A stretch of 64,000 bases of DNA from Candidatus Bathyarchaeota archaeon. GTDB taxonomy: Archaea > Thermoproteota > Bathyarchaeia > Bathyarchaeales > Bathycorpusculaceae. Both the position numbers and the translations under genes were made by a program. Positions within the stretch are counted from its first letter, which is position 1, and every line of letters begins with the position of its first letter. The stretch spans positions 2,464,001-2,528,000 of the forward strand of contig OY970340.1 of the NCBI GenBank assembly GCA_963717465.1. The letters are read 5' to 3'. Shown here piece by piece: positions 2,534 through 61,015 of this stretch. The notes under the pieces are model-generated. The model saw nothing but the letters and a program-made list of their open reading frames with translations, did not search any database and had not been told where the DNA came from.

Positions 2534-4510
2534 CTACTTGCCTCCTTGAGCGACAGCTTGTGCGGGTTGGGCTGCTTGTGATGGAGGAGCAGTTTCTTGA
2601 ACTTGGATTTTTGGTGGCATGGGGGTTTCTTTTATGGCTTTTTCAACGATGGGTATGTATTCGCCTAAGCCTAATTCTTTGAGTTTTTCAGGAGTGGGAA
2701 TTCCCTGAGGTGTCCATCCTCTTGAAGCGTAATAGTCGTCTAATCCAAGCTGCATTTCTTCGTCGTTTACGCAAACACCTTTAGCTGGACCCTCATCTGG
2801 AACTGGGAAATGCTTGATTTTGTATGGCACGTCATCGTATTTTCGTGTGCCTTTGCCTTCACGTATGTTGAATACTCGGGCAAGGTTTTCTATTCTGTCG
2901 CCATCTTTCATCATTTCTTCAACTGTGATAGGTATGCCCGTGGCTAAAGTGTAATAGTTAACGATGTCCTTCCAGCCATCGTAGTATGTGCCTCTGCTGA
3001 ACTTGCAAACGATGAGTGAGTCAATAATGTTATACATGTAGCTTTCATCAGTGATCATTTTGCCTCGTCCTTTCTCAATCTTGAAACGGTTAACTTTGCC
3101 TTTCACATCAGGAGAATAAGCGCCATTTCTTAAGTGACATGCACCACGGAAGGCTACCGAAAATCCCAACGCTGCAGTCTTCAAGGTTCTTAAATCGTAA
3201 CCTGGAAGTTCCAAGCCTTTAATATGACAAGCGTACTTGTACGCATCACCACCAATTATTTCAGCAGCTTTCGCTACGCCTTCAGCTAACGCGCTACCAA
3301 GCCAGCCGTCACGTTGGCCAATCTTGTGGATTATTTGGATTAACGCTTCCGCGTTTCCAAAACGAAGATCAATACCGTCAGTTTGCTCTTTAGTTATAAC
3401 TCCATGTTCGTAACAGTCCATTGCAAAGGCAACAACTACTCCGATAGATATGCCGTCCATGCCATACTCGTTAACGATTCTCATGGCTTCAATTATGGCA
3501 TCTAAACGGTCAATTCCGCATAATGGTCCCATACTCCAGAGACACTCAAATTCCAATCTGGAAGTTGAACCTTTGTATGGTCCTTCTGGAACCTGGGCAA
3601 TGTGGTCACAACGCATGCCGCATGTTGCGCAACCAACAACTTTCTTTACGTAATGCTCGTTTAAGTATTCACCACTCACCCTGTCGGCACCCTCAAAGGT
3701 TGCGTTAGACCAGTTCCTTGTAGCTAAAGCAGAAAGAGAATTTAACACTAGAACATTTTCAGGAGTTCCCAGCGTTTTGTACTTCTTTGTTGCTGGACCC
3801 TTCATACGTTCATGAATCAACTTCACGAAGTCCATGAAGCCAGTCCTATTCGCAACGTTAACGTCATGCGTTCCACGCACTGCAACAGCTTTGAGGTTTT
3901 TTGAGCCCATAACTGCACCCATACCAGAACGCCCAATCGCTCGGAATTCATCGTTAATTATGGCTGCGAATCGGCAGAGTTTTTCGCCTGCTTCACCGAT
4001 GGCTGCAACACGAATGTAAAAGTCGTTTAGTTCCTCACGAATACCTTTGTCCGTATGCTCAATCGTGGCATGCTTTAGGTGTTCAGCATTCATGATCTGG
4101 ACTTTGTCATCATCAATCCAAAGGTAACTGAGCTTGGGAGCTTTACCAGTAATTATAACAGCATCATAACCTGCACGTTTAAGGTCTGGACCGAAGAAGC
4201 CATGCGCTTCAGCATTACCGATACCACCGGTAGCTGGAGACTTAGATACCACAGCGTAACTGTTGCCGCCTGTTGGACCCATGGTCCCGCTAAGCGGACC
4301 TGTTAAATATATAAGTGGATTAGATGGGTCAAAAGCGTCTGCACCTGAAACAGAATTGTCCATCAGAAGCTTTATGCCTAAGCCTATGCCTCCGATGTAG
4401 TTTTTTGCTAATTCTTCAGTTAGAGGTTCGGTTTTCGTTTCCCCTGTTGTTAAGTTAACACGTAAAATTTTTCCTGCGTAAGCAAACATTCCCTTTTGCC
4501 TCGGAATCAC
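2534..4510 (-). CDS. aor: Tungsten-dependent aldehyde:ferredoxin oxidoreductase
   Basis: GKILRVNLT, KSPATG, GR.GMGAVMGSKNLKAV, CATCGMRC, RGACH motifs. Confidence 0.93.
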   Translation of the reverse strand: MIPRQKGMFAYAGKILRVNLTTGETKTEPLTEELAKNYIGGIGLGIKLLMDNSVSGADAFDPSNPLIYLTGPLSGTMGPTGGNSYAVVSKSPATGGIGNAEAHGFFGPDLKRAGYDAVIITGKAPKLSYLWIDDDKVQIMNAEHLKHATIEHTDKGIREELNDFYIRVAAIGEAGEKLCRFAAIINDEFRAIGRSGMGAVMGSKNLKAVAVRGTHDVNVANRTGFMDFVKLIHERMKGPATKKYKTLGTPENVLVLNSLSALATRNWSNATFEGADRVSGEYLNEHYVKKVVGCATCGMRCDHIAQVPEGPYKGSTSRLEFECLWSMGPLCGIDRLDAIIEAMRIVNEYGMDGISIGVVVAFAMDCYEHGVITKEQTDGIDLRFGNAEALIQIIHKIGQRDGWLGSALAEGVAKAAEIIGGDAYKYACHIKGLELPGYDLRTLKTAALGFSVAFRGACHLRNGAYSPDVKGKVNRFKIEKGRGKMITDESYMYNIIDSLIVCKFSRGTYYDGWKDIVNYYTLATGIPITVEEMMKDGDRIENLARVFNIREGKGTRKYDDVPYKIKHFPVPDEGPAKGVCVNDEEMQLGLDDYYASRGWTPQGIPTPEKLKELGLGEYIPIVEKAIKETPMPPKIQVQETAPPSQAAQPAQAVAQGGK

Positions 4511-25629: not shown

Positions 25630-27204
25630 TTAGAACCTTGCTCCGGTTCCTTTCGTGTCTATTGCATAGCCGCCGATCTGTAGTACTTTGTCGTATTTGG
25701 CTACGATTGAATTCATTCTGTCAGCTACGTCTTTTGGCGGCAGTGGAGCAGGGAACTCCTTAACGATTTTCTGGGTTAGAGCGTATGCGCGGTCATCAAA
25801 GCCAAGTTTGTCTTCAATCCATCGCAAATATTGCCTCAACTCGTATAAGCCATAACCATGGCGCATTGGGAAGAAGCCTATGTCAGTCATGGTCTGTAGA
25901 GTGTGTTTTTCCTTCATGAAGTCGCCTCTTGGACCCTTAGTAAGCCATTGATCGGGCATGAAAGCTTCAGGTGAAAAATCTAAGTCTTTGAAGAACCACG
26001 AAAGCAAACGAAGCACTTCTGCTAGTTCAGTGTAGCCTTCTGGTCTGATTCCGTTTGGACCTACTGTTGTAGCCCAACAGCCACATTGGTCGGTAGCCAT
26101 TTGGAAGGCGTTGAATATGTGGTAAGTTAACATACCAGCTTGTGAGTCTGCGGCAGCTGCTGTGCCTCCCATGTTACATCCTGGCCACATGGTTGCTTTT
26201 GGTGTTGGGTAGTTGTTGTGCCAGAAGCTCACGTGTAAAGCTAATCCTTTGCTGAATTGTTCTTCAGTTCCTGCTAACATTTGTGTGTATGGGTCCATTG
26301 GCATCACTAGGTCGTAGGTCATGTCAGGGATATGGCCTTTCGCGATTCCGCCTTGTCCAAGAGCTAAAGCTACTGCCATTGATGCAGATGCAGCAACAGT
26401 CACTGTGTATGCTCCTGTTATAGTGCATGGACCTTGGAATCCAGGTATGCAAACATCAGTGTGGTCTATAAGTAGAGGTCTGCCTTTTGTCCAACCTTCC
26501 AAAGTTTGGCTCATTCTGTCACTTGTCTTTTGGCCGAAAACTAAGCCTGGTGTGTCTCCATGGTTAGTAATAAATGGTCTCTTAGCGACTTCGTCTAATC
26601 CTCCGAGCACTTCTGCAGCTAAATCAGTATAGCAGTCAATATGATCAATTGCATCAATATGCCAAATGTGTTTGGTAGTGCATTGAATAGTGCTGTTAAG
26701 ATCATGAGTATCCACTGGCAAACCAGCTTCTGCCAAGTCCATAGGCAGGAAAATTGGGCTCGTCATGTCATACTCGGGGAAGTACTCAACAATCTTTTGC
26801 TCTCTCCAGTTGTCAGCGTCAACACAGTCTCTGAATTCATATTGGTGTGTTGCTAGATTCAATTTGGAATATAGTGCCATGATGCCGAAGCCTCCGCGGA
26901 AAACTCTGCCGCTTCCGCATTCCATGAATATGTCGTTGTTTGGCGTTCTTCCTGGCAAAATTTGGTAACTTGGTATTGCATTTATGGCTTCAACTGCAAG
27001 ATTTTGAGGTATCTTTACGATTCCTTTTTTCTCGTCAGCGACGGTGCATCCTAAGTCTTTGTAGACTTTTTGAAGTTTAGGAGTAACTCCTCCCACTCCA
27101 ATTTTATCCAACAGAAACATTGCAGTATTATGGATTGTCATCAATTCTTCTTTTGTTGCTATTGAACGTGTAAATCTTCTAGGTATATTTACTCCTGTTC
27201 TCAA
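25630..27204 (-). CDS. MttB-superfamily corrinoid methyltransferase, no pyrrolysine
   Basis: IH..A..LL.KIG, GPCTITGA, DSQAG, GPRGDF...HT; no in-frame TAG. Confidence 0.8.
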   Translation of the reverse strand: MRTGVNIPRRFTRSIATKEELMTIHNTAMFLLDKIGVGGVTPKLQKVYKDLGCTVADEKKGIVKIPQNLAVEAINAIPSYQILPGRTPNNDIFMECGSGRVFRGGFGIMALYSKLNLATHQYEFRDCVDADNWREQKIVEYFPEYDMTSPIFLPMDLAEAGLPVDTHDLNSTIQCTTKHIWHIDAIDHIDCYTDLAAEVLGGLDEVAKRPFITNHGDTPGLVFGQKTSDRMSQTLEGWTKGRPLLIDHTDVCIPGFQGPCTITGAYTVTVAASASMAVALALGQGGIAKGHIPDMTYDLVMPMDPYTQMLAGTEEQFSKGLALHVSFWHNNYPTPKATMWPGCNMGGTAAAADSQAGMLTYHIFNAFQMATDQCGCWATTVGPNGIRPEGYTELAEVLRLLSWFFKDLDFSPEAFMPDQWLTKGPRGDFMKEKHTLQTMTDIGFFPMRHGYGLYELRQYLRWIEDKLGFDDRAYALTQKIVKEFPAPLPPKDVADRMNSIVAKYDKVLQIGGYAIDTKGTGARF

Positions 27205-27253
27205 TTTTTTCCATCCCTTTTTATTATAGCTGACTTAATTGGTCAGCTTTATC

Positions 27254-27335
27254 GATATTTAAGTTAGATTATAAGCAGTTTTTGTTTTTAGCGACAATTT
27301 GGGATATTCTAACAATTTCCATCAACATTATTGCA
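27254..27335 (-). promoter_or_regulatory. Conserved promoter/operator element, copy 1 (mttB-like operon)
   Basis: + strand TTATA 27269, GCGACA 27291, ACATTATTGC 27325. Confidence 0.8.
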
Positions 27336-27711
27336 AAATAGACAGCTTTTACAAGAAAATGTAGACTTACTATTTTTAGAATATTTATCAAAGGCATAAA
27401 ACAAGCGTAATCATTAATAGGTTAAAACAAATATTTAATTTATAACTTGAACTTTCATCTCAAACGAACCCTTTTTGCTATGAAAATAGCTAAAAAAAAC
27501 TTCAGGTATATGCATCTATTCTAAAGTAAGTCTTTTTTGATTTCTGATGAGGAAATTGCTGCTACTTTACTATTTTCTATGAAGAGAATGTTTTAGCAGG
27601 TTGATGGAAATATTTTAAATATACAAGTAAGCGCTAAAATAATTTGCAAGCGCTCAATTCAAATCTTTTAAGAAAATAAAGAGATGAGTAATTCATCTCT
27701 CATTATTCCAT

Positions 27712-29073
27712 TTAGCCCCAAGTTGGGTAATCAAAACCCATGTCTTTGAATTCTTTTGTCACTTTTTTGTACAGATCTACACATTCCTTTCTAGGTTTCA
27801 AAGTTTCTTGGTCATAGAATTCGTATAGGTTTCGCGATAGCACACTCCAGTCAAATGCCTTCAATGCAGGTGTAAACTTTGTTATGAGTTCTTTTATTAG
27901 CTTGGTTCCTTCGCTTACCTTTGTGCCAGCTGCTGCTCTTGTGAATTCACTTCCGAATTTTGCGCCCAGAGGAGGTGTACTACCGACTTCCCACATTCCT
28001 TCCATGCCTGAGATGCAAGCAGTCATACAGGCTGCTGCTGTTCCGTACCAGTCAGCTTCAGTCATTGGTATGTTTAAGCCTATTCCACTTGAAATCCATG
28101 GAGCTTTTATGTTTCGGTCTGCAGCTAACGCCATTGCCGAGTTAGCCCAGAAAACGTCTGCGCCTACATATACGTTATCAATTGTGTTGGTCATAGCCTG
28201 TGTGAAGGAACCATCTGCATAGGCCATTTGACCTAGCGAGTGAGCCATAGCTTCAAGAACTGCTTCTTCAGGAGAACTGATGTAACCGTACAGTGTTGGG
28301 CTAGTACTCTGCCATGGAACTATTTGGTGTTGCATAGCGAAGTAGGCAAGATTAACTCTGTCAAGAACAAGACGCATATCCTGAAGTATGTGAACTGGCA
28401 TCATGCAGTTTCGGTTTGTATAGTATCCAGGATCAAAAGCGGAGATTAGAGCGATCATGCTTGTTGCAGTCATAGGTATACCCAGTAACATGCCAGGTCT
28501 TCCAGCGGCGCGTGCACCAGCAGTCAACAGTTCGCATTCAGTGTGAACCATAAGTGACTCAGTAGGTGTGCCACCGGTAGGTTTCTGACCAAAAGAGGCT
28601 TCAATTATATTAGGAATCATGCCGTCAGTTGTAGGTTCCCTGGCAACAAGATAAACAGCGTCTCGCCATTGTGATAAGTCGCTTCCCATCCATCCAGCAG
28701 CATTCAAGCAGTATGGATGTTGTTTATCCTCTGGACCTCTAGGACGCATCCTCAGTATGTCCCTGCCTGTTCCCCACTCAACCTCCTGCTTTCGTGTCTT
28801 CACAACTTCTCTGAGCTCTGTTTCAGTGAATTTCACCAAGTGCTTGGTATCCTTGCAGTACAATCCGCATTGGACAAGCAATTGTATGCTGGCTTCGTAG
28901 ATAGCATCAGCCATTTGTGCATCTGTCAAAATTGGTTCGCCATCCCATTTAATCTTGTAATCTTGGACTAACTGCTTTACTTTCTCGGGAAAAAAGGTAT
29001 TTTCAAATTCGTCTTCCTTCATTATTGGACCAGTTCTGGTTCTTTCCAAAACTTCCCACAATAAATGACCCAT
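27712..29073 (-). CDS. MtmB-family (monomethylamine methyltransferase-like) protein, no pyrrolysine
   Basis: CGLYCKDT..VKFTE.E, GTGRD, AGRPGM; no in-frame TAG. Confidence 0.88.
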   Translation of the reverse strand: MGHLLWEVLERTRTGPIMKEDEFENTFFPEKVKQLVQDYKIKWDGEPILTDAQMADAIYEASIQLLVQCGLYCKDTKHLVKFTETELREVVKTRKQEVEWGTGRDILRMRPRGPEDKQHPYCLNAAGWMGSDLSQWRDAVYLVAREPTTDGMIPNIIEASFGQKPTGGTPTESLMVHTECELLTAGARAAGRPGMLLGIPMTATSMIALISAFDPGYYTNRNCMMPVHILQDMRLVLDRVNLAYFAMQHQIVPWQSTSPTLYGYISSPEEAVLEAMAHSLGQMAYADGSFTQAMTNTIDNVYVGADVFWANSAMALAADRNIKAPWISSGIGLNIPMTEADWYGTAAACMTACISGMEGMWEVGSTPPLGAKFGSEFTRAAAGTKVSEGTKLIKELITKFTPALKAFDWSVLSRNLYEFYDQETLKPRKECVDLYKKVTKEFKDMGFDYPTWG

Positions 29074-29927: not shown

Positions 29928-30127
29928 AGAAATAATAATCATTTTGGCACAAATGTGCAATACTCCAATCTCTTCGAATCAAAGAACAAGATGAGCTTCG
30001 ATAAAACACAAAAAAAATTGTTAAGACATCTGTTTTGCTATGATATTAAAAAATTATCACTTTCGTGTAATTTAATACGCACAACGATAAATAAAACTAA
30101 AAAAAGAGGAAAGTTTATTGCAAGTTT

Positions 30128-32440
30128 TTATGGTCCGTACGATCCGATGTTTGCTGAGTACACTTTAGCAAGCTGAGATTTGAAATTCCAGGCTCCAAGT
30201 TCAGCGCTAAGATGCTCTGGGCTATCTGGAATTGTGACATTGATATTCCAGTCTGTCCAGCCATAGAGCGTTGGCTCCTCAGCTGGCAATTCAGGACGCC
30301 ACCAACCATGCTCAGGAGACACAATCTTTGGATTAACACCAAAATCATACCGCACCGTCTGCATACACCTACCAAGCGGCGTCTCAATGTAGATCCATTC
30401 ACCATCGCCAATGCCCATGTTACGTGCCGTCAAAGGATGCATTTTTACGCGAGGGACTGGACGCAAATGCCGCATCAAGCTGAGATGTCGATGCTCGCCA
30501 TGCTGAGCCTCTTGGAACCGTGCACCGCTACACAGAATCATAGGATAATCCTTAGCGATGTCAGGCGCACTAATCGGAGTCCAAGGATTCTCGACATAAT
30601 ACGGTATCGGGTCATACTCCAACTGCTCCAGTATGGTGGAGTAAAGCGCAACTTTACCCTCAGGAGTTCCAAAGCCTCTGATCTGTCCAGTCTCAGGATC
30701 AAGCTCCTCATACTTCTTAAATCTAGGTTCATACGGCGGAACACCCTTCCACTCCTTTATAACTTGTTTATGCGTCCAGCCAACAGGCTCATAGAACCAG
30801 TCCGCCATCTCCTCTAAAGTTTTCCAAGGCATGGCTGCGTAAGTTTTGTTCTCGCCAACAACTGCAACTGCCAGATCGCGGAATATTATGCTGTCATCTT
30901 TCAGATCCCACAATCCAGGAATTTTCTGAGGCAGCGCCCGATCACCTGCAATCTCAAACTCAACTGATCCCTGAGTTGAAACAGTCCCATAACCAGACGG
31001 CCTCTCAAACTGACTCGTACCAGGCAACACATAATCTGCAAGCATAGCCTCAGGAGTCATCGAAGCACACTCAATGTACACAAACAACTCAAGCTTCTTT
31101 AGAGCCTCATAAACCTTCTTTATGTTCGCATAACACCTCATTGGACCACATTCACCAGCAAACATCGCTTTAACTGGATAGGGCTTGCCAGTCAAAATCG
31201 TATCTATTGTACTTGGGAAATGTGCACCTACTGGTCCAGCATACCCAGCACCCTTCCAGTATCCTTGAGCCGTCTCTGACGCTTGAATAAGACCACCACC
31301 ACTAAAGCCTCCCATCCTGTATGTCTCGCCGCCTATCTGTTTTCCCCAATCGCTGTTAGTCCCGCTAATTGCTGTTTGGAACGCCTCACAAGCAGTGTGG
31401 AATTTGGGTCTTGCATGTAGGTATTCGCCGCCTTCAATGTCGACGTTGCCAGTTAACGCCGGTAGCATATATTTGGATCGAACGTTGTTCATGGAGTTTC
31501 TACCACCTGATTCAATGGCGTAGCCATATGGGAAAGAACATGGACTATTTTCAACTATGAAGTGAGCAGCTTCCCTAATCTTCTCAGCTGGAATCCAAGT
31601 AATTTCCGCAACCTTCTCAGGAGTGTACTGCTTAACACGTTCTTTTAGCTTGTCAAAGCCAAAGCACCATTTCTCCACAAAGTCATGATTATACAAATCC
31701 TCCTCGATGAGAACATTCAGCATAGCCAGCAAAAATGCAGTATCAGTGCCAGGTCTAATGGCCAACCATTTTTCAGAAATCCGAGCGGTCTCAGTAAAAC
31801 GTGGATCTATGCAGAGCATTTTCGCGCCTCCCTCCGTTGCGGCAACGAAACCTGGCCACGCATATGTCCAAGACTCCATAGCATTATTACCAATATTAAA
31901 TATACCCTTAGTCTTACCTGGAATCATCATTGCGTATGTTAATCCCACGCCATAGCCTAATCCTAAGGCTGAGTACGTGGGTCCGGCTCATTGCTGAGCT
32001 GCAGCCGACGCAAAGTTCGGACTGCCCGCTAACATGTGGAAGAAGCCAAGTCCTATGCCCAAGTTTGCAGCTCGACCGGTGCCAAAAAAGCCGCATAGTG
32101 ATTCGCCACCGTACTTTGCAATAAGTTCCTTCGTTTTAGCGCCTATTTCACTACATGCCTGCTCCCAAGAGATTCTTTGCCATTTACCTTCACCTCGTTT
32201 GCCAATGCGTTTAATTGGGTACATCGGCCTATCCTTATGGTAAATGTACTCTACACTGTATTTCCACTTCTGACAATAAGGCCCAGGATTAAAAGGGCTT
32301 TCCCAGTCAGGCTCAACCTTGGTTATTTTACCGTTCTCAACAGTCTCAAGCAATTGACAAGATCCAGTACTGCAAAAACCGCAAACACATCTATGCAATC
32401 CATCGTATGCTTTTGGGTCTTCAATTTTAGTTTCACTCAT
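30128..32440 (-). CDS. Mo/W-bisPGD oxidoreductase (DMSO-reductase superfamily, acetylene-hydratase-like), 770 aa read through in-frame TGA at codon 151 (probable selenocysteine)
   Basis: The two track ORFs share a frame and are separated only by TGA 31990-31988; N-terminal CGFC...C...C Fe-S motif; IDPR, IRPGTD, DYVLP, GKV.LYS, V...HGWW motifs. Confidence 0.88.
31944..31981 (-). promoter_or_regulatory. Candidate SECIS hairpin just 3' of the in-frame UGA
   Basis: CCCACGU/GCGUGGG lower stem, AGCCU/AGGCU upper stem, G-containing loop UAGGAUU starting 23 nt after UGA. Confidence 0.6.
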
Positions 32441-60850: not shown

Positions 60851-61015
60851 TGGTGCCGTTCGTCCAAACAGACGCTAATTCTGCTTGTGGGACGGGATTC
60901 GAGCCCGCGACCTCTGGCTTTAGGCGTTTAGCCCCTTTAGTCTCCAGATTTCTCATCTGGGTTTGTCCTACCAGATTATGAGTCTGGCGCCCTGGCCAGG
61001 CTAGGCTACCCCGGC
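60851..61015 (-). tRNA. tRNA-Met(CAT), elongator type, with three BHB introns (37/38, 45/46, 68/69)
   Basis: Exons 61015-60977, 60949-60942, 60911-60889 and 60858-60851 join into a full cloverleaf, GCCGGGG/CCCCGGC-A-CCA. Confidence 0.88.

Follow-up and report, generated by a model that had tools for sequence, protein, structure and literature searches.

In bacteria, the signal for reading UGA as selenocysteine (Sec) is a hairpin in the coding sequence (CDS), just 3' of the codon: there is one such selenocysteine insertion sequence (SECIS) for each UGA, its sequence varies, its loop lies 16-37 nucleotides (nt) away, and, as in E. coli fdhF, it is read by domain 4 of SelB. According to reviews up to 2026, the SECIS elements of archaea lie in untranslated regions (UTRs), and the archaeal SECIS-binding factor is unknown (PMC9499178, PMC13188914, PMC11881835; what we cite by PMC number refers to the parts of each text that were available to us). 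Here we describe a hairpin with the bacterial placement in an archaeon. It follows an in-frame UGA in a molybdenum/tungsten (Mo/W) enzyme gene, within 64,000 nt of contig OY970340.1 from a Candidatus Bathyarchaeota archaeon (the window, that is, the whole stretch that was analysed). With the family of this gene included, a stem in the same place follows UGA codons in six unrelated protein families of Bathyarchaeia; the hairpin is real, selected and lineage-wide.

The Methanococcales and Asgard archaea have the same class of machinery (PSTK, SepSecS and aSelB) and Sec in the same families (HdrA, MvhD/VhuD and SelD), but their SECIS elements lie in UTRs, far from the UGAs that they serve, and are marked by a GAA_A or an AUGA_GA motif (PMC9499178, PMC4989117, PMC13188914). 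In the euryarchaeal type, GAA_A forms a bulge and there are S-S pairs; in the Asgard or eukaryote-like type, AUGA_GA is the core of a 3' UTR hairpin. Other archaea use one UTR SECIS for several UGAs, whereas in Bathyarchaeia each UGA has its own stem. The bacterial system differs in other ways: the source genome gave no match to SelA or to the winged-helix domain of SelB, the predicted fold in the window breaks the bacterial rule of a G in the first two loop positions, and the start of the stem is more fixed than the loop. "Bathyarchae" appears in neither a 2026 review (PMC13188914) nor a 2024 study of Asgard archaea (PMC11227280), and in the available parts of the literature (PMC5424206 and PMC9723677 among the sources) we found no description of a UGA-proximal element in Bathyarchaeia.

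The Sec codon redefinition element (SRE) of human SEPN1 (SELENON) is also a stem-loop in the CDS after a 6-nt spacer; its stem has 16 base pairs (bp), and the HdrA stem described below has 15-16 (PMC3159437). In cell culture, the SRE boosts readthrough even without a SECIS (PMC3159437). It is likewise paired with a factor of the eEFSec/aSelB type, without winged helices. However, the SRE has an accessory role beside a 3' UTR SECIS and SBP2 and is found at a subset of UGAs, whereas the stem in Bathyarchaeia follows the UGA at 51 of 58 sites, and our scans of the flanks revealed no UTR SECIS. Finally, the 3' readthrough stems of RNA viruses and Drosophila genes have a fixed short spacer (7-12 nt) and very variable loop lengths (PMC3159437). 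Their long-loop forms resemble some SelD folds described below, but they act in near-cognate readthrough, not with a cognate tRNA-Sec system.

A hairpin after the UGA of a Mo/W enzyme gene

The gene and its hairpin have the following features. Hairpin nucleotides are numbered with the U of UGA as nt 1.

30128..32440 (-): gene for a Mo/W-bis(pyranopterin guanine dinucleotide) oxidoreductase, 770 codons with one in-frame UGA (open reading frame with TGA read as U)
31988..31990 (-): UGA codon 151, likely Sec, at the metal-ligand position (aligned to U140 of E. coli FdhF and to a Cys of acetylene hydratase)
31982..31987 (-): spacer of 6 nt from the UGA to the stem, unpaired in the fold
31975..31981 (-): 5' arm of the lower stem, nt 10-16; its Pro and Thr codons, CCC and ACG, are invariant in 10 of 10 close paralogs
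31966..31970 (-): 5' arm of the upper stem, nt 21-25, with changes on both sides at 4 of 5 pairs among 11 paralogs
31959..31965 (-): apical loop of 7 nt, nt 26-32, purine-rich and variable
31954..31958 (-): 3' arm of the upper stem, nt 33-37, from the fold and the paralog alignment
31944..31950 (-): 3' arm of the lower stem, nt 41-47; its Gly and Val codons, GGC and GTG, are invariant in 10 of 10 close paralogs

The predicted fold, at -18.8 kcal/mol, has a lower stem of 7 bp (nt 10-16 with 41-47), an upper stem of 5 bp (nt 21-25 with 33-37) and a 7-nt loop (nt 26-32). The hairpin had been noticed earlier in a reading made from the letters of the window (the sequence-only reading). The string given there matches 31990..31944 (-) letter for letter, and its two-stem hairpin with a G-containing loop was recovered by folding: the loop starts 22 nt past the UGA, and both Gs are at loop positions 3-4. 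As was also claimed, the hairpin lies in the CDS right 3' of the UGA, like a bacterial SECIS. Its 7-nt loop, 22-nt distance and energy of -18.8 are all within the bacterial limits (a loop of 3-9 nt, 16-37 nt from the UGA, and an energy of -7.5 or lower). No Rfam family matches the hairpin, and none of six loci gave a SECIS match at E <= 10.

The sequence-only reading had proposed synonymous-codon shuffles as a check, and the hairpin is more stable than these: nt 10-51 fold at -19.4, versus a mean of -9.2 (z = -3.84, 1/1000). Dinucleotide shuffles gave a modest effect (z = -2.06; 12 of 200 were as stable as the hairpin). The genome encodes 11 UGA paralogs of the enzyme, including the gene in the window, which are 43-78% identical to the window protein; 3 of the 11 are interrupted elsewhere in the gene. 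All 11 beat their synonymous shuffles (z from -3.1 to -4.4), and the first helix starts at nt 10 in ten of them and at nt 11 in the other. Across the 11 paralogs, 93% of the cells in the stem alignment pair (95.5% in the 5' arm of the lower stem), and there are 5 double-sided changes, a number matched by 0 of 500 shuffles, although this covariation score is inflated because the paralogs are kin. A distant paralog keeps the stem by a one-base shift in register. Synonymous differences are also scarce in the stem block (93/461), as compared to 28-53% in later blocks. Another proposed check, the comparison of UGA and Cys homologs, tied the stem to UGA: it is mostly missing from the Cys versions. 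We compared the Mo/W enzyme with 26 distinct Cys homologs from the class; three rows have a weaker stem from nt 10.

Several alignments bear on the identity of codon 151. The protein has the Pfam domains Molybdopterin, Molybdop_Fe4S4 and Molydop_binding, and the closest solved structure is the acetylene hydratase of Pelobacter acetylenicus (2e7z; E = 8.9e-108, residues 18-761). The UGA aligns to U140 of E. coli FdhF and to the Cys that follows the GSPN motif in acetylene hydratase. Of 110 database homologs spanning codon 151, 109 have Cys there. These alignments indicate that codon 151 likely encodes Sec. The residue is Cys in acetylene hydratase and predicted Sec here; we take this conserved Cys to be the tungsten ligand. 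Where acetylene hydratase has an Asp in its iron-sulfur motif, presumably the catalytic Asp13, our protein has Ser. Because of this replacement, the reaction probably differs from that of acetylene hydratase.

A search of 400 other genomes from the class found no close UGA ortholog; a distant match, in G181, may have a UGA. A search of genome contigs found two distant Cys loci, and a search of viral contigs found no match. Database fragments that start just past the UGA (65-91% identity; P0002-P0004 and P0008-P0010) suggest that UGA relatives exist elsewhere.

The same stem layout in other families

For comparisons of orthologs, we used genomes and 78 metagenome loci, and the scan for UGA and Cys sites was filtered against shadow frames. 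A helix that starts at nt 9-12, with an energy of -10 or lower, was present at 51 of 58 UGA sites (among which the Ig-like sites were partly chosen by the stem itself), versus 8 of 53 sites in Cys homologs and 16 of 686 UGA stops. The seven UGA sites that fail this layout test are all SelD. Across families, the stem keeps its start at nt 10-11. The loop, by contrast, starts anywhere from 18 to 24 nt past the UGA and has a variable sequence; the families share no primary sequence. The bacterial loop-G rule is obeyed at 34 of the 58 sites, and the fold in the window and 9 of the 11 Mo/W paralogs do not. Each UGA has one stem, including both UGAs of the HdrA-MvhD fusion and both of a URO-D-like gene. 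We also made a census of the genome, covering families that have homologs in our local sequence set. Among 7522 in-frame UGAs tested, 60 were spanned by homologs and 15 of these aligned to Cys at least three times; 14 of the 15 fold at -12.8 or lower, and SelD is the sole exception.

UGA and Cys copies can be compared in the HdrA-MvhD fusion, in which both UGAs are followed by a stem from nt 10 (synonymous z = -6.0 for HdrA and -4.4 for MvhD). For HdrA, nt 10-51 fold at -21 to -27.6 in 10 UGA copies versus -0.4 to -12 in 25 Cys copies, and synonymous z scores of -2 or lower were seen for 10/10 UGA and 0/24 Cys copies. The corresponding energies for MvhD are -21.6 to -22.4 in 9 UGA copies versus -1.7 to -14.5 in 22 Cys copies, with z at or below -2 in 9/9 versus 0/22. 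The stem was not found in the HdrA or MvhD Cys paralogs of the UGA-bearing genomes. Synonymous change in the HdrA stem block is 52/517 in UGA copies, as compared to 36-39% in later blocks and to 135/222 in Cys copies; for MvhD, it is 61/476 in UGA copies versus 276/431 in Cys copies, and the MvhD sequence is near-invariant even at mismatched positions.

Some HdrA UGA copies (L069-L073) have UGA-specific residue changes, from Lys to Arg after a Pro and later from Asn to Lys or Gln, at places where the stem requires them; the protein sequence of HdrA appears to bend to the RNA stem. There is also a UGA-bearing HdrA-like match at G220:C24.

Of the two in-frame UGAs of the URO-D-like gene, the first aligns to Cys in 8 of 8 paralog matches and the second in 5 of 6, with synonymous z scores of -2.8 for the first and -4.6 for the second, whose stem is clear. 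This URO-D-fold gene (L017:988-2226 (-), G000:C1:2822987-2824225) lies inside a corrinoid methyltransferase cluster and is a candidate two-Sec enzyme.

Scanning for the stem led to a family of surface proteins with immunoglobulin (Ig)-like domains, whose UGAs are at a homologous place and which adjoin Sec genes. Their stems covary (10 double-sided cells, 0/500 shuffles). Three further UGA copies in G220, all outside the original sample, have the stem at nt 11 (3/3; z = -2.8, -1.7 and -3.7). We saw UGA copies in SepSecS-bearing genomes only; three homologs from elsewhere lack both UGA and Cys at the site, and homolog searches found no Cys homolog of the domain. These proteins are a candidate new selenoprotein family. 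They have an N-terminal hydrophobic leader and Ig-like repeats, and the UGA is often in a UxxC, UxC or CU context (L103:1755-2798 and 2919-4163 (-), L019:2597-3823 (+), L275, L280 and L281; in G103, G110, G220 and metagenome loci).

Selenocysteine machinery

The source genome is a single contig of 3.05 Mb, 88% complete, and contains SepSecS, a SelD with an in-frame UGA, and two tRNA-Sec genes above the Rfam cut-off. Its SelB is a 732-amino-acid fusion of PSTK and aSelB. In this 88% complete genome, there were no matches to SelA (PF03841) or to the winged-helix domain of SelB (PF09107; the E. coli control was positive). A profile built from nine fusions aligns to Methanococcus maripaludis aSelB (4ac9) over positions 274-727 of 731, whereas its alignment to E. 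coli SelB ends at 567. In a structure model of the fusion (mean predicted local distance difference test score of 70.8, predicted template modelling score of 0.39), the C-terminal domain is mostly beta, and the best Foldseek match is again 4ac9. The sequence-only reading had offered bacterial-type Sec recoding as an explanation. As a description of the machinery this does not hold, given that SepSecS is present, SelA was not found, and SelB is a PSTK-aSelB fusion that reaches the C-terminus of the M. maripaludis protein; and the check it had named on SelB turned up no SECIS-binding winged-helix domain in the genome, the profile or the model.

A search of 401 genomes of the class found SepSecS in 13, and among 401 genomes of the phylum no class other than this one had it; the PSTK-aSelB fusion is in 11 of the 13 genomes that we searched for it. 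The same fusion has been described in Bathyarchaeota and in one Archaeoglobus (PMC9499178, PMC8762117). The word "SECIS" does not occur in the main text of PMC8762117, whose supplements may bear on the novelty of our observations.

A second PSTK-aSelB copy, with an altered GTPase P-loop, adjoins the second tRNA-Sec gene and the URO-D-like gene (L017:5364-7556 (-), G000:C1:2829638-2829725); it may be a kinase-only or carrier copy. At L245, L246 and L251, PSTK and aSelB are separate adjacent genes, possibly a pre-fusion or split state.

How the stem might act

Some role of the stem in UGA recoding is very probable. We favor a more specific reading, to which we give a probability of roughly 55%: the stem that starts 6-7 nt past the UGA would be the main signal for reading Sec in Bathyarchaeia, probably acting at the mRNA entrance of the ribosome. 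A stem that acts by its position is favored over a SECIS whose loop is read because the stem start is fixed, the place and sequence of the loop vary, and a winged-helix reader was not found. Such a stem would resemble the SEPN1 SRE, with its 6-nt spacer, and viral readthrough stems (PMC3159437, PMC8704476). By the general geometry of the ribosome, when the UGA is in the A site, nt 10 would be at about the mRNA entry pore. A stem there would slow unwinding and hinder the termination step, which involves aRF1, and Sec-tRNA brought by the PSTK-aSelB fusion would then outcompete termination without a UTR SECIS or a loop-reading winged-helix domain.

The stem would work like an SRE or a bacterial SECIS and belongs to neither system. 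Whether Bathyarchaeia have a third prokaryotic mode of decoding Sec, with the PSTK-aSelB fusion, without a UTR SECIS or a SECIS-binding domain, and with the stem as the sole signal, we consider an even bet; the same bet includes the proposal that the eukaryotic SRE has a stand-alone counterpart in this stem.

Several observations weigh against the stem as the main signal. True UGA stops can pass the layout test (the 16 of 686 given above), and the site counts overstate independence because sites within a family are kin. The comparison set was made up of genes other than the methanococcal and Asgard ones, which are those with a UTR SECIS. Among the 26 Cys homologs of the Mo/W enzyme, which are 32-40% identical and so a weak control, two fold at -15 or lower. 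The stem of the first URO-D-like UGA is weak, with just 4 bp, at nt 11. And a G at loop position 1-2, as seen at 34 of 58 sites, would also fit a factor that reads the loop.

The weakest family is SelD, where synonymous z scores of -2 or lower were seen for 12/19 UGA versus 2/7 Cys copies. A two-helix fold of nt 10-39 pairs 84% of cells in most copies, which is no better than column shuffles. The SelD of the source genome has no short hairpin (z = +0.4), but its nt 10-39 block has few synonymous differences among three genomes (4/36). In a wider window chosen post hoc, a long stem from nt 13 appears (z = -4.2, -4.0 and -2.4), and two other copies have a 10-bp stem from nt 10 (z = -1.7 and -1.0); Cys copies in the same wider window have z of -0.6 to -2.4 and partly the same fold. 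As a separate observation, among eight genomes of the host's family (L023-L027 vs L009, L020 and L021), five have a SelD with Cys and three a SelD with UGA, and all of these keep the UGA in HdrA-MvhD.

Alternative explanations

The strongest alternative, which we consider doubtful, is a bacterial-style SECIS that arose by convergence. Its loop would be bound by domain IV of aSelB, by the helical C-terminal part of PSTK or by some other factor, and this would tether the Sec-tRNA. The start of the loop, 18-24 nt past the UGA, is within the bacterial range of 16-37 nt (PMC13188914); G is in the first two loop positions in 8 of 10 HdrA, 9 of 9 MvhD and 7 of 7 Ig-like copies; the stem of E. coli fdhF also starts at nt 10; and a loop reader might explain why MvhD is near-invariant even where it is mismatched. 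However, the loop-G rule is broken in 9 of the 11 Mo/W paralogs, the gene in the window included, and in 13 of 19 SelD copies. As for the reader, the 88% complete genome has no winged-helix match, no further gene is conserved beside the Sec machinery at 20 loci, and domain IV is predicted to be mostly beta strand and matches the M. maripaludis aSelB, which reportedly fails to bind SECIS (PMC9499178).

It is less likely still that the stem is an accessory SRE which only boosts efficiency, and that the required signal is a separate SECIS of another shape, whether in a UTR or at some other place in the operon. This would agree with what is known of eukaryotic SREs, which are accessory (PMC8704476), and of Methanococcus, where a UTR SECIS is required (PMC11881835); the weak SelD cases also suggest that the stem could be dispensable. 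But the stem is at nearly all of the Sec sites, not at a subset, and the flanks argue against a second element. The sequence-only reading had described a 3' flank that runs into a T tract without a hairpin, and this is what we found:

30099..30113 (-): pyrimidine/T tract, likely an archaeal terminator, 14 nt past the stop

There is no terminator-like hairpin, and because the tract is only 14 nt past the stop, there is little room for a 3' SECIS. In all 9 of the Mo/W paralogs that we examined, such a tract lies no more than 24 nt past the stop. A strict scan of 17 5' and 3' flanks found no Euryarchaeota-type motif and one eukaryote-like motif, and a relaxed scan of 38 3' flanks found the Euryarchaeota-type GAA_A once (0.8 expected) and the eukaryote-like AUGA_GA five times (6.1 expected). 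T tracts excepted, no motif is common across families in the 38 3' flanks, nor did we find one in the 17 5' flanks; these scans had no positive control and are blind to a SECIS of new shape or beyond 200-300 nt, which is a further point against the stem as the main signal.

A third explanation, that the stem is a relic of a bacterial SECIS which was imported with a horizontally acquired gene and is no longer read, is largely refuted. The family of the Mo/W enzyme does mix Chloroflexota, Deltaproteobacteria and Bathyarchaeia, and the codon of E. coli fdhF that is homologous to the UGA in the window is likewise followed by a stem from nt 10, so a shared ancestry with bacterial SECIS is conceivable for this family alone. 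That would not be sufficient, because HdrA, MvhD, URO-D-like and Ig-like genes carry the layout too. Furthermore, the stem is kept, with compensatory changes, across paralogs that are 43-78% identical, and it is present in the native archaeal HdrA-MvhD and not in Cys paralogs of the same genomes. Among the best 120 homologs of HdrA, 18 are named by organism and all of these are archaeal, with 17 Bathyarchaeia labels and one Freyarchaeota; one label has "bacterium" after a family name that we take to belong to the Bathyarchaeia. Judging from these homologs, HdrA is a native archaeal gene. In 301 Chloroflexota genomes, the Mo/W enzyme has seven matches, none with an internal stop, and in a FastTree phylogeny (77 rows) the UGA genes form their own clade with Cys sisters, and no donor can be named. 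Acquisition from bacteria, the other explanation in the sequence-only reading, is not supported, given the layout in HdrA-MvhD and that no UGA homolog was found in those 301 genomes.

Finally, it is barely credible that these are genes broken by nonsense codons (as the three Mo/W paralogs with other interruptions might suggest) or that the stem has another role, such as mRNA stability or pausing for cofactor insertion, given that, wherever a family has Cys homologs, the UGA aligns to a conserved Cys, that the genome has the full Sec machinery, and that Cys versions with the same cofactors do without the stem.

Implications

A lineage that marks each Sec codon locally, without the bacterial reader, breaks the rule that archaea use UTRs, and this explains why UTR-based predictors would miss the selenoproteins of Bathyarchaeia. 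As a short signal open to testing, the stem allows one to ask how aSelB finds its codon, and it bears on the origin of the eukaryotic system of SECIS and SRE. If the stem is the sole signal, then its rule would predict new archaeal selenoproteins: acetylene-hydratase-like enzymes, two-Sec URO-D-fold proteins and Ig-like surface proteins. If the stem and one fused factor suffice, this would be a compact system for Sec insertion.

Neighboring genes

Just downstream of the Mo/W enzyme gene, at 25630-29073 (-), are genes for MttB-like and MtmB-like methyltransferases that have no in-frame amber codon, hinting that the enzyme might take part in the metabolism of methylated compounds. Elsewhere in the window, at 60889-61011 (-), there is a weak Rfam tRNA match that was missed by ARAGORN; it is longer than a plain tRNA and is possibly an intron-containing tRNA.

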